Below are positions 15,625 to 17,390 of a stretch of DNA of 32,000 nt, piece by piece. The DNA comes from Nanopusillaceae archaeon (GTDB lineage Archaea; Nanobdellota; Nanobdellia; Nanobdellales; Nanobdellaceae). The notes beneath the pieces are model-generated. The model ran no database searches. It was not told the origin of the DNA and was given only the letters and a program-made list of their open reading frames with translations. The stretch spans positions 35,080 to 67,079 of the forward strand of contig JBMFJD010000004.1 in the NCBI GenBank assembly GCA_049974095.1, given 5' to 3'. Position numbers and translations under genes: made by a program. Every line of letters starts with the position of its first letter. Position 1 is the first letter of the stretch.

Positions 15625-16029
15625 TTATACAATAATACTTGCAATTTTTCCAATTTCTGGCCATCTTTCTACAACCTCTCTTGCTACAGGTCCTCTAATT
15701 ACGGTACCTGCTGATAATCCAGTTTTTTCATCTTTTATTATTATACATGCATTATCTTCAAACTTTATTCTTGTTCCATCTTTTCTTTTATATTCTTTTC
15801 TTTGTCTTATTATTACTGCCTTCATTACTTTTCCTACTAATGATAAATCTCCATCAATAATTGAAACATAAACCACATCTGCGATTCCTGCTCTAGCATA
15901 TCTTCTCTTTATACCTTTATATCTTAAAACTGAAATTACTTTTGCTAATTTTGCTTTTGAATTATCAGCAACTTTTAATATTGTTCCAACCGTGATCCCT
16001 TTTGTAACCTTTGCATTTATTGCCTTCAT
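15625..16029 (-). CDS. rpl14: 50S ribosomal protein L14 (uL14)
   Basis: ILKVADNSKAKLAKVISVL...ARAGIADVVYVSI...KAVIIRQRKEYKRKDGTRIKFEDNACIII...GTVIRGPVARE. Confidence 0.93.
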   Translation of the reverse strand: MKAINAKVTKGITVGTILKVADNSKAKLAKVISVLRYKGIKRRYARAGIADVVYVSIIDGDLSLVGKVMKAVIIRQRKEYKRKDGTRIKFEDNACIIIKDEKTGLSAGTVIRGPVAREVVERWPEIGKIASIIV

Positions 16030-16361
16030 ATTTTGTTAATTATAACAAACTTGATTGTTTTTGATAAGGGCCTTGTTTCTCCAATTAATACTTTGTCTCC
16101 AACATTAATATTTAAGCACTTTGGTACATGCGCTTTTATTTTTGATATTCTAATTTCATATCTTTCATATTTTGGTATATAATAATATTTTGCAAATTTA
16201 ACTAATGCAATTCCATGTTTTATTCTTATTACTTCTCCTTTAAATATAAATCCCCTTATCCTAACTTCTCCATGCCATGGGCATTTTTTATCATTACATG
16301 TATTTTCTGGAGGATTTACTCCTTCTATTCCAATATCTTTAACATGAACCTTCTGTGCCAT
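16026..16361 (-). CDS. rps17: 30S ribosomal protein S17 (uS17)
   Basis: CNDKKCPWHGEVRIRGFIFKGEVI...YYIPKYERYEIRISKIKAHVP...VGDKVLIGETRPLSKTIKFV. Confidence 0.9.
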   Translation of the reverse strand: MAQKVHVKDIGIEGVNPPENTCNDKKCPWHGEVRIRGFIFKGEVIRIKHGIALVKFAKYYYIPKYERYEIRISKIKAHVPKCLNINVGDKVLIGETRPLSKTIKFVIINKI

Positions 16362-16373
16362 GTTTCTTATAAG

Positions 16374-16381
16374 TTATAAAT
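16374..16381 (+). promoter_or_regulatory. TATA-like box (TTATAAAT) for the C/D sRNA / DUF488 transcript
   Basis: Centred about 25 nt upstream of the C box at 16403. Confidence 0.35.
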
Positions 16382-16383
16382 AA

Positions 16384-16391
16384 TTTTAAAA
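16384..16391 (-). promoter_or_regulatory. TATA-like box (TTTTAAAA) for the S17-L32e r-protein operon
   Basis: Centred about 26 nt upstream of the S17 ATG at 16361. Confidence 0.35.
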
Positions 16392-16402
16392 ATAATGTTT
16401 GT

Positions 16403-16452
16403 ATGATGAAGGATCAACGATCTGAGGAGATGATGAATGATGGGCAAACTGA
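16403..16452 (+). ncRNA. C/D box sRNA (2'-O-methylation guide)
   Basis: C box ATGATGA (16403-16409), 12-nt guide AGGATCAACGAT, D' box CTGA (16422-16425), 4-nt GGAG, C' box ATGATGA (16430-16436), 12-nt guide ATGATGGGCAAA, D box CTGA (16449-16452). Box order and the 12-nt spacers are exactly the archaeal architecture. Confidence 0.8.
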
Positions 16453-16960
16453 GATATATACGCTAGGTCATTCTAATAGAAATATAGAGGAATTCTTGGA
16501 GATATTAAAAAAGAAAGATATAGATATTGTTATAGATGTAAGATTAATACCTGGATCAAATAAATATCCACAATATAACAAAGAAAATTTAGAAAAATAC
16601 TTAAATAATAATAATATTGAATATTTACATTTAAAGGAGCTTGGAGGATTTAGAAAACCTTTAAAAGATTCTAAAAATATATGGTGGAGAAATAAAAGTT
16701 TTAGAGGATTTGCAGATTATATACAAAGGACAGAATTTAAAGATGTAATAAAAAAATTGATAGAAATTGCAAAAAATAAGAAAGTAGTAATAATTTGCTC
16801 TGAGAAAAATCCTTATAGATGCCATAGAAGAATAATATCTGACTATTTATCATTAATATATAATGTTAAAGTAATACATATAATTGATAAAAATAGAGAA
16901 GAAGAACATAAAGTTACTAAATCTACAAAAATAATCAATAATGATATTATTTATCAATAA
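16430..16960 (+). CDS. DUF488-family protein
   Basis: EIYTLGHSNRNIEEFLEILKKKDIDIVIDVRLIPGS...ENLEKYLNNNNIEYLHLKELGG and a later CSEKNPYRCHRR match DUF488. The ORF opens at 16403. Family members usually start just before the IYTxGHS motif, so the ATG at 16430 or 16433 (inside the C' box) is preferred. Confidence 0.7.
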   Translation: MMNDGQTEIYTLGHSNRNIEEFLEILKKKDIDIVIDVRLIPGSNKYPQYNKENLEKYLNNNNIEYLHLKELGGFRKPLKDSKNIWWRNKSFRGFADYIQRTEFKDVIKKLIEIAKNKKVVIICSEKNPYRCHRRIISDYLSLIYNVKVIHIIDKNREEEHKVTKSTKIINNDIIYQ

Positions 16961-16961
16961 T

Positions 16962-17390
16962 TTAGTGGGCGGCTTCCGTGCTTTCCCGGCCTTCGCCAGT
17001 ACTCACACAGACGTGGGCCGGCTTAACTTCCGTGTTCGAAATGGGTACGGGTGTTTCCCGGCCACTTTGGCCGCCCTTGATTTTATCATTTCCATGAACC
17101 TTTTTTAAATCTTTTCTTATATTGAATCTCTTAACATATCCACAATATAAACATTTATATATAATTCTTCCTCTTCTTATCCTTATTTGTAATGTTTTAC
17201 CGACAATCCATGGAGTATAACATCTTTTACAAAATTTATTTCTTAAATTTTTTGGCAATCTAATTCTAGCTTTATTTTTTATTTTCCATAAAATATAAAT
17301 ATATCTTCTAGATAATTCTAAATTATCAATATTTTCTATTGCTTTCTTATATAAATATTCTATTCTCTTTATTGCTGTTTTTTTATACAT
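16962..17390 (-). CDS. rnp4: RNase P protein component 4 (Rpp21/Rpr2). The ORF has no stop before the 5S gene and runs through it
   Basis: AIKRIEYLYKKAIEN...LSRRYIYILWKIKNKARIRLPKNLRNKFCKRCYTPWIVGKTLQIRI...YKCLYCGYVKRF is the Rpp21 helical arm plus zinc ribbon. The conserved domain ends near nt 17120. Residues ~105-142 (KGGQSGRETPVPISNTEVKPAHVCVSTGEGRESTEAAH) are a translation of the 5S rRNA gene. Confidence 0.75.
   Translation of the reverse strand: MYKKTAIKRIEYLYKKAIENIDNLELSRRYIYILWKIKNKARIRLPKNLRNKFCKRCYTPWIVGKTLQIRIRRGRIIYKCLYCGYVKRFNIRKDLKKVHGNDKIKGGQSGRETPVPISNTEVKPAHVCVSTGEGRESTEAAH
16965..17076 (-). rRNA. 5S ribosomal RNA (isolated, not linked to 16S/23S in this window)
   Basis: The reverse complement reads GGGCGGCCAAAGUGGCCGGGAAACACCCGUACCCAUUUCGAACACGGAAGUUAAGCCGGCCCACGUCUGUGUGAGUACUGGCGAAGGCCGGGAAAGCACGGAAGCCGCCCAC. 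It contains the conserved ACACCCGxACCCAUUUCGAACxCGGAAGUUAAGCC core. Helix I pairs GGGCGGC with GCCGCCC. Ends are accurate to within a few nt. Confidence 0.93.
17102..17109 (-). promoter_or_regulatory. 5S rRNA promoter: TATA box TTTAAAAA preceded by the purine-rich BRE-like AAGAAAAGA, embedded in the rnp4 coding sequence
   Basis: The minus strand reads AAGAAAAGATTTAAAAAAGG. The TATA centre lies about 29 nt upstream of the 5S 5' end at 17076. Confidence 0.45.

Follow-up and report, generated by a model that had tools for sequence, protein, structure and literature searches.

In the genome of a tiny Nanopusillaceae archaeon (Nanoarchaeota) of hot springs (763,811 bp, 25% GC, 48 contigs; hereafter G000), the gene for a DUF488 protein lies between rps17, which encodes ribosomal protein S17 on the opposite strand, and a convergent 5S ribosomal RNA (rRNA) gene, and its 5' end overlaps a 50-nucleotide (nt) element with the layout of an archaeal box C/D small RNA (sRNA). 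The window analysed here is a 32,000-nt stretch of DNA (G000:C4:35080-67079), and positions given without a contig label are positions in this window (Table 1).

On the plus strand, 16403-16452 reads ATGATGA-AGGATCAACGAT-CTGA-GGAG-ATGATGA-ATGATGGGCAAA-CTGA, which matches letter for letter, including both 12-nt guides and the 4-nt loop, the C/D sRNA layout described in a first-pass annotation of the bare sequence. That annotation had also held that the arrangement was not due to chance, and the genome-wide counts agree: a strict double-box pattern (RTGATGA-N10-14-CTGA-N2-12-RTGATGA-N10-14-CTGA) was matched five times in the genome and never in any of 10 third-order-Markov simulations, and half motifs (a C box, N10-14 and CTGA) numbered 18 in the real genome against one to five in the simulated ones. 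A slightly relaxed pattern yielded 10 candidate C/D sRNAs genome-wide, and the guides of most of them have a contiguous match of 9-11 bp to the organism's own 16S or 23S rRNA with a Watson-Crick pair at N+5.

Rfam reported no family for the locus at gathering thresholds. Ranked by E-value, about a dozen archaeal C/D families align end to end over 16399-16455 (+), all below their gathering scores, the best being sR2 (RF01139; E=7.5e-7, with 36.1 bits where the gathering score is 42). The self-structure of the RNA is not significant (z=-0.6), as expected of a guide RNA. Furthermore, the genome encodes the proteins of the small ribonucleoprotein (sRNP), with Nop5 and fibrillarin adjacent at C1:107292-108604 and L7Ae at C4:20951-21223 (profile scores of 288 bits for PF01269, 198 bits for PF01798 and 100 bits for PF01248). 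The element resembles known archaeal C/D sRNAs (Pyrococcus sR2, sR18 and snoPyro_CD, and those of Nanoarchaeum equitans) in its RUGAUGA/CUGA terminal boxes, internal C' and D' boxes, 12-nt guides, lack of a terminal stem, rRNA complementarity in the N+5 register and the presence of genes for L7Ae, Nop5 and fibrillarin.

Table 1. Features of the locus and further C/D sRNA candidates of the genome
Feature	Position	Strand	Remarks
TATA-like box TTATAAATAA	16374..16383	+	inferred sRNA promoter; invariant in alignment A1
Second AT box TTTAAAAATA (+) / TATTTTTAAA (-)	16385..16394	-	invariant in alignment A1; probable TATA box of the rps17 operon
C box AUGAUGA	16403..16409	+	first in-frame AUG of the open frame; TGATGA invariant in all orthologues
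D' guide AGGAUCAACGAU, 12 nt	16410..16421	+	pairs with 16S nt 6-15 CGUUGAUCCU
D' box CUGA	16422..16425	+	invariant in genus g1
D'-C' loop GGAG, 4 nt	16426..16429	+	variable: TAAA, TATA, ATG or ATA in relatives
C' box AUGAUGA	16430..16436	+	nearest possible DUF488 start codons at 16430 and 16433
D guide AUGAUGGGCAAA, 12 nt, core UGAUGGGC	16437..16448	+	also codes for N-D-G-Q of the DUF488 N-terminal extension
D box CUGA	16449..16452	+	invariant in orthologues
DUF488 protein gene	16430..16960	+	Pfam DUF488, E=3.4e-32; minimal coding sequence from the C' box AUG
rps17 (ribosomal protein S17)	16026..16361	-	Pfam Ribosomal_S17; conserved divergent neighbour of the sRNA
5S rRNA gene	16964..17078	-	Rfam RF00001, 75.9 bits; convergent with the DUF488 gene
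Further C/D candidates	C1:16890-16940, C5:1412-1460, C5:35859-35906, C8:46294-46342	+	outside the window
Further C/D candidates	C1:2956-3004, C2:43066-43115, C4:34675-34723, C5:49018-49068, C10:13446-13494	-	outside the window

Conservation of the element and its genomic setting

Orthologues were sought as a C box followed by xGGATCAACGxx and CTGA, and 10 of 12 genomes from the genus of G000 (g1) had a single copy. The sRNA is also present in genus g2 (in G016, and in G013 by a looser search) and in G019, which belongs to another family of the same order, and a permuted relative with the guide for the 16S 5' end in the D position occurs in G027 (G027:C29:6040-6092). When 401 genomes of the class were scanned with a stricter pattern, matches came only from genus g1 and G019, with none in the more than 380 others, and the pattern search gave no orthologue in G020, a probable N. 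equitans.

In all 11 genus-g1 loci, rps17 starts 42-48 nt upstream of the C box. The downstream side is variable, with the 5S gene at +70 in G001, +187 in G004, +385 in G008 and +1139 in G009, the DUF488 gene in G000 and G006, and other DNA in the remaining congeners. At least eight congeners carry the sRNA with invariant boxes and D' guide and no DUF488 gene downstream.

In an alignment of seven genomes (A1), the two AT boxes, the TGATGA of both C-type boxes, GGATCAACGA of the D' guide, both CTGA boxes and the D-guide core TGATGGGC are invariant, and indels and other variation occur in the leader, in the D'-C' loop and in the 3' flank. The motif GGATCAACGA is invariant across genus g1 and is also present in g2 and g5. 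The first-pass annotation had proposed comparing the boxes with the codons in orthologous DUF488 loci. Between G000 and G006, identity is 21/22 for the boxes, 12/12 for the D' guide, 1/4 for the loop and 8/12 for the D guide, so that the boxes and D' guide together are identical at 33 of 34 positions, against 106 of 168 third codon positions (63%) in the rest of the coding sequence, which shows conservation of the RNA and not of the codons. Judged on sequence comparison, 16403-16452 is a real, conserved archaeal box C/D sRNA, an old element of the locus to which the DUF488 gene is a variable add-on.

Predicted targets of the two guides

The 16S rRNA gene of G000 (C1:33597-35088) begins AUUCCCGUUGAUCCUGCGGGG, and positions 3-12 of the D' guide form 10 contiguous Watson-Crick pairs with nt 6-15 of this rRNA, the match length that had been guessed from the guide. 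The N+5 rule leads to U8, the first U of UUGAUCC, as had also been predicted; U8 is the equivalent of E. coli U13 in the 16S alignment of Dennis et al. (2015, PMC4644070). Among 2000 shuffled guides, 1.05% equalled the D' guide in a scan of 7.7 kb of rRNA, 5S and 41 tRNAs (P=0.0105), and the 16S target site is invariant in every congener examined. In genus g2 the same D' guide is joined to another D guide, AGGAUAGCGGUGG in G013 or GGAUAGCGGUAG in G016; that of G013 matches nt 26-37 of its own 16S at 12/12 positions, so that the guide pair frames the first 40 nt of 16S. The corresponding guide of G027 reads GGAUCAACUAG, and the 16S of other families in the class reads CCAGUUGAUCC; the 16S of G027 itself is unassembled, and a match in G044 is not rRNA. 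The pairing and its conservation suggest that the D' guide most likely directs 2'-O-methylation to 16S U8.

Guides for this site are found beyond the Nanoarchaeota. Methanopyrus kandleri sR31 and Ignicoccus hospitalis sR155 have guides complementary to the 16S 5' terminus, CCGGUUGA(UCC), reading ...UCAACCGG and GGGAUCAACCGG respectively (Dennis et al. 2015, PMC4644070). In sR155, GGGAUCAACCGG is the D guide directly before CUGA, and N+5 is again the first U of UUGAUCC. M. kandleri sR31 contains GUCAACCGG as well as ...GAGCGGUGG directly before CUGA, which are complementary to the same two 16S regions in the same register; its second guide (...GAGCGGUGG) targets 16S CCACCGCU in the register of the D guides of the G013 and G016 orthologues, and K31 is labelled twice in the first part of the published 16S alignment (Dennis et al. 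2015, PMC4644070). These pairings were derived here from sequences in Additional file 1 of PMC4644070 and are not discussed in the text of that paper. The two RNAs differ from the present one in belonging to other phyla and in guides that extend into CCGG, where the nanoarchaeal sequence is CCCG, and the partner guide in Nanopusillus (AUGAUGGGCAAA) is unrelated. Both the guide for the 16S 5' end and the sense overlap with the 5' end of a reading frame have published precedents.

A 23S site at nt 94-105 (ACCGUUGAUCUC) might be the real target of the D' guide in place of the 16S 5' end, being the second-best D' site in the stable-RNA scan with eight contiguous Watson-Crick pairs, one G-U pair and one isolated Watson-Crick pair. 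Nevertheless, we consider this very improbable. The site reads CCGCUGAUC in G004, which puts a C and a mismatch at N+5, and AUCAUCGAUCUU, heavily diverged, in G006, and the guide is unchanged in both and the 16S site invariant; the guides of I. hospitalis and M. kandleri, moreover, reach into the 16S-specific CCGG. The 23S site was accordingly rejected as a conserved D' target.

For the D guide the picture is different. The first-pass annotation had asked for complementary targets of both guides in the organism's stable RNAs, and this held for the D' guide at the 16S 5' end and failed for the D guide, which has no match there above chance (P=0.5). Its core UGAUGGGC is nevertheless unchanged throughout the genus-g1 lineages, even where no coding sequence overlaps it. 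The D guide could be functional too, by forming the 8-bp duplex GCCCGUCA/UGAUGGGC and directing methylation of 16S C1368, which corresponds to E. coli C1402; this is the leading candidate site, a possibility that we regard as doubtful while keeping it in view. The invariance of the core would fit such a role, N+5 on GCCCGUCA falls exactly on this decoding-centre residue, M. kandleri sR124 has a guide against the C1402 region, and predictions for A1408 have been published for N. equitans and S. acidocaldarius (Dennis et al. 2015, PMC4644070). In G013 and G023, the 16S equivalent of E. coli 1401-1409 reads GCCCAUCAU where the near-universal sequence is GCCCGUCA(A/C), the changed residues, which correspond to G1405 and 1409, lying at the top of helix 44; GCCCAUCAU is a perfect 9-nt complement of the D guide, which is suggestive only. 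Against this role, the C1402 site scores at the shuffled-guide median (P=0.5), the first three guide positions stay unpaired and the duplex contains an internal G-U pair, the same 8-mer also occurs in 23S at nt 2050, and where a reading frame overlaps a guide with its 5' end, that guide is an orphan in 88% of cases (Lui et al. 2018, PMC6009581). The partner guide of G027, UUGACGAGCGGG, was considered as further support and matches the C1402-site region at 10/12 positions with an internal mismatch beside N+5, in a genome whose own rRNA is unassembled; the support is weakened by the finding that the same 11-mer occurs in sense in the anticodon arm of tRNA-Val(GAC) of G044, where it makes up the anticodon loop and 3' stem (G044:C1:162894-162904).

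Other D-guide sites were set aside. A 9-pair site in the 23S leader is common to G000 and G001 only and has diverged in G004 and G006, and the site at 23S nt 2050 is altered in G006 without compensation. No 11-mer match to the D guide was found in this genome and three complete congeners besides the antisense strand of the gene itself. The best GC-context match genome-wide, at C1:73308 (-), is antisense to a stretch just upstream of tRNA-Ser and is implausible as a stable RNA. Directly upstream of this tRNA-Ser(GGA), a GC-rich hairpin at G000:C1:73254-73317 (+) (CCCCGC...ACCAAUGUGAGAAUAUGAUCAUUGGU...GGGCCGGGGG, then ACAACA), with a GUGA/GA apex like a kink loop and, 3 nt ahead of the tRNA, an ACA box, resembles a single-hairpin H/ACA sRNA co-transcribed with a tRNA; Rfam HgcG matches it weakly (21.7 bits, E=0.0018).

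Putative promoter region and start of the DUF488 gene

Both invariant AT boxes lie in the 41-nt spacer that separates the rps17 ATG from the C box. In N. equitans, box A lies about 26-27 nt upstream of the transcription start (Randau 2012, PMC3491384), and this spacing from the box at 16374-16383 would place initiation at about 16400-16403, so that the unprocessed transcript could be a leaderless DUF488 messenger RNA (mRNA) beginning at the C-box AUG. The second AT box is probably better placed for rps17 on the opposite strand, whose ATG is at 16361; the box sits upstream, at a distance of about 26 nt from a position 7 nt ahead of that ATG. Judged by their spacing, the two AT boxes would be interleaved divergent promoters, each acting on the more distant of the two genes. 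A promoter consensus sought in the upstream regions of tRNA and sRNA genes was too AT-rich for reading by eye, and a sigma-70 promoter scan was set aside as irrelevant for archaea.

The ATGs at 16403 and 16430, one from each ATGATGA box, are in frame with the DUF488 open reading frame (ORF), as the first-pass annotation had noted. The open frame of 185 amino acids (16403-16960) reaches back beyond the minimal coding sequence (CDS), and in both G000 and G006 it is open from 16403 across the whole sRNA motif. Other DUF488 homologues of Nanoarchaeota have M and one to five residues before (I/V)YT(I/L)GHS, for example MKIYTIGHS, MRKEIYTIGHS and MKVYTIGHS. In neither G000 nor G006 does an ATG, GTG or TTG occur from the end of the C' box to the conserved IYTLGHS motif, so that translation must begin at 16430 or 16433 in the C' box, or at 16403 or 16406 in the C box, and the earlier proposal of a start within an sRNA box stands. 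The C' box, D guide and D box together encode the residues MMNDGQTE.

The DUF488 gene occurs in 2 of 12 congeners, in G006 at the same position as in G000 and in G001 about 540 kb from its sRNA. In G000 the CDS exactly fills the space from the D box to the 3' end of the 5S gene, a space of about 17 nt in G001. The interval from the D box to the DUF488 CDS shows neither a terminator-like site nor a conserved AT box of its own, so that co-transcription from the sRNA promoter is the simplest reading of the sequence. The DUF488 gene would appear to have settled behind the sRNA, borrowing its promoter and start codon.

Overlap with mRNA sequences is frequent among the C/D sRNAs of Nanoarchaeota, most of the 26 in N. 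equitans showing it (Randau 2012, PMC3491384). The present arrangement comes close to the 'category 1' overlaps of Pyrobaculum, in which a sense sRNA at an ORF 5' end is probably co-transcribed with it, translation is initiated within the C' box or the D guide region, the overlapped guides lack a target in the proportion given above, and a competition between L7Ae assembly and translation has been discussed (Lui et al. 2018, PMC6009581). Here too the overlap is sense and 5', the two would be co-transcribed, the only start codons before IYTLGHS are those of the C' and C boxes, the overlapped guide is without a target, and the overlap is confined to a subset of family members. Unlike category 1, the overlapped D-guide core is kept here even in relatives without the ORF, and the transcript may start at the C-box AUG as a potentially leaderless mRNA.

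Proposed mechanism and alternatives

Given the sequence architecture, conservation, synteny, complementarity and sRNP protein genes, from which we infer transcription start, processing, methylation and the choice of AUG, we consider it quite probable that the locus as a whole is a C/D sRNA with its own promoter that directs methylation of 16S U8, with DUF488 co-transcribed from the sRNA boxes. An RNA of about 50-56 nt would be transcribed from its own conserved TATA promoter in the spacer common with the divergent rps17 operon and would assemble with L7Ae, Nop5 and fibrillarin. The D' guide would then pair with nt 6-15 of nascent 16S and place a 2'-O-methyl group on U8, and while bound it would also mask the strand from which helix 1 and the central pseudoknot are later built. 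DUF488, which lacks its own promoter, terminator and start codon, would be co-transcribed with the sRNA and translated from the C' box AUG, or leaderless from the 5'-terminal C box AUG. Each transcript could become either a trimmed sRNP or a DUF488 mRNA, never both. Several points weigh against this picture. The promoter assignment rests on conservation, in a genome of 25% GC with AT-rich boxes everywhere. Guide positions 1-2 beside the D' box are mismatched to 16S, leaving a duplex of positions 3-12 only. Furthermore, half of the 'double guide' is unexplained, as the best stable-RNA match of the D guide, 7.5 (seven Watson-Crick pairs and one G-U), equals the shuffled median and falls short of the complementarity of at least 9 bp that the D' guide reaches, and we therefore treat the D guide as conserved but apparently orphan.

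The opposite view would be that the boxes are mere N-terminal coding or 5' mRNA sequence of DUF488, arising by chance or as a translational operator for L7Ae, and that there is no free sRNA. It could draw on the open frame from 16403 through the motif in G000 and G006, and binding of L7Ae to kink turns in archaeal mRNA 5' regions is documented (PMC5539422). The 50-nt element is kept, however, in at least eight congeners without a downstream DUF488 gene, in G001 the 5S gene follows it directly, and DUF488 homologues elsewhere lack the N-terminal extension, so that this explanation appears largely refuted by the comparative data and is scarcely credible. A role in rRNA folding is harder to separate from methylation. 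The eukaryotic U3 small nucleolar RNA (snoRNA) is a box C/D-class RNA whose box A pairs with the extreme 5' region of small-subunit (18S) rRNA, which forms the central pseudoknot. The sRNA might likewise act mainly as an RNA chaperone, holding 16S nt 6-15 and delaying helix 1 and the central pseudoknot during assembly, which we judge somewhat unlikely as its principal function. The E. coli 11-20 region presumably includes the 5' strand of helix 1 and that of pseudoknot helix 2, as in the textbook 16S secondary structure. In favour of a chaperone, the duplex spans the counterparts of E. coli 11-20 in the alignment of Dennis et al. (2015, PMC4644070), the D' guide is the part of the RNA most conserved across genera while the partner guide changes, the guide pairs of g2 and of M. 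kandleri sR31 bracket the first 40 nt of 16S, and chaperone roles have been proposed for dual-guide sRNAs, those of N. equitans included (Dennis et al. 2015, PMC4644070). On the other side, the RNA pairs in precisely the register of a methylation guide, Watson-Crick at N+5, and the U3-specific boxes (A, A' and B) and extended hinge pairings are absent; the two functions are not mutually exclusive and nothing here tells them apart. The likeness to U3 in its pairing with the extreme 5' region is an analogy and would not make the sRNA a member of the U3 family: a search for U3 in Rfam at E<=10 gave no match, the 50-nt RNA consists of C, D', C' and D boxes and two guides only, without hinges to the 5' external transcribed spacer, and it has the size and layout of a methylation guide. 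A reading that joins both ideas, with a U3 box A-like hold on the helix 1/pseudoknot strand during co-transcriptional assembly (in thermophilic Nanoarchaeota and in some other hyperthermophiles, by M. kandleri sR31 and I. hospitalis sR155) and a transcript doubling in this species as leaderless DUF488 mRNA, sRNP assembly and translation competing for it, seems to us unlikely.

Under the favoured account of a methylation guide with a co-transcribed ORF, the locus conforms to rules already published, represents no new kind of element and leaves current concepts unchanged. It adds a well-supported, previously unannotated guide RNA to the Nanopusillaceae, in which about ten such genes can be found by the same pattern, and it points to a candidate conserved modification, 2'-O-methylation of the U13 equivalent, with guides for the site recurring in three archaeal phyla. 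It may also serve as an example of gene capture, in which a newly placed gene in a 0.76-Mb genome took the promoter and start codon of a non-coding RNA.

Some observations concern the other candidates and the neighbouring RNA genes. The guide matches of several of the nine further candidate C/D sRNAs cluster on 23S nt 1928-2000. An Rpr2/Rpp21 ORF at 16962-17390 (-) stays open across the entire 5S gene. The 16S 3' end of the genus (G000:C1:35060-35100 and congeners) reads ...CUGCGGCUGGAUCUAGUU(U)AA... instead of the usual archaeal GGAUCACCUCCU, which is kept in G020; the anti-Shine-Dalgarno CCUCC is apparently absent from the genus, which suggests initiation in Nanopusillaceae that is independent of Shine-Dalgarno pairing or leaderless. 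In the 23S leader (G000:C1, about 43985-44045, minus strand, the 60 nt before the 23S 5' end), a sequence ...CCUGAUGAUUAAGAUGAGGGGAUGAAAGGAGA abuts the mature 5' end and forms a run of C-box-like motifs (UGAUGA, GAUGAG and GAUGAA) that might bind L7Ae.

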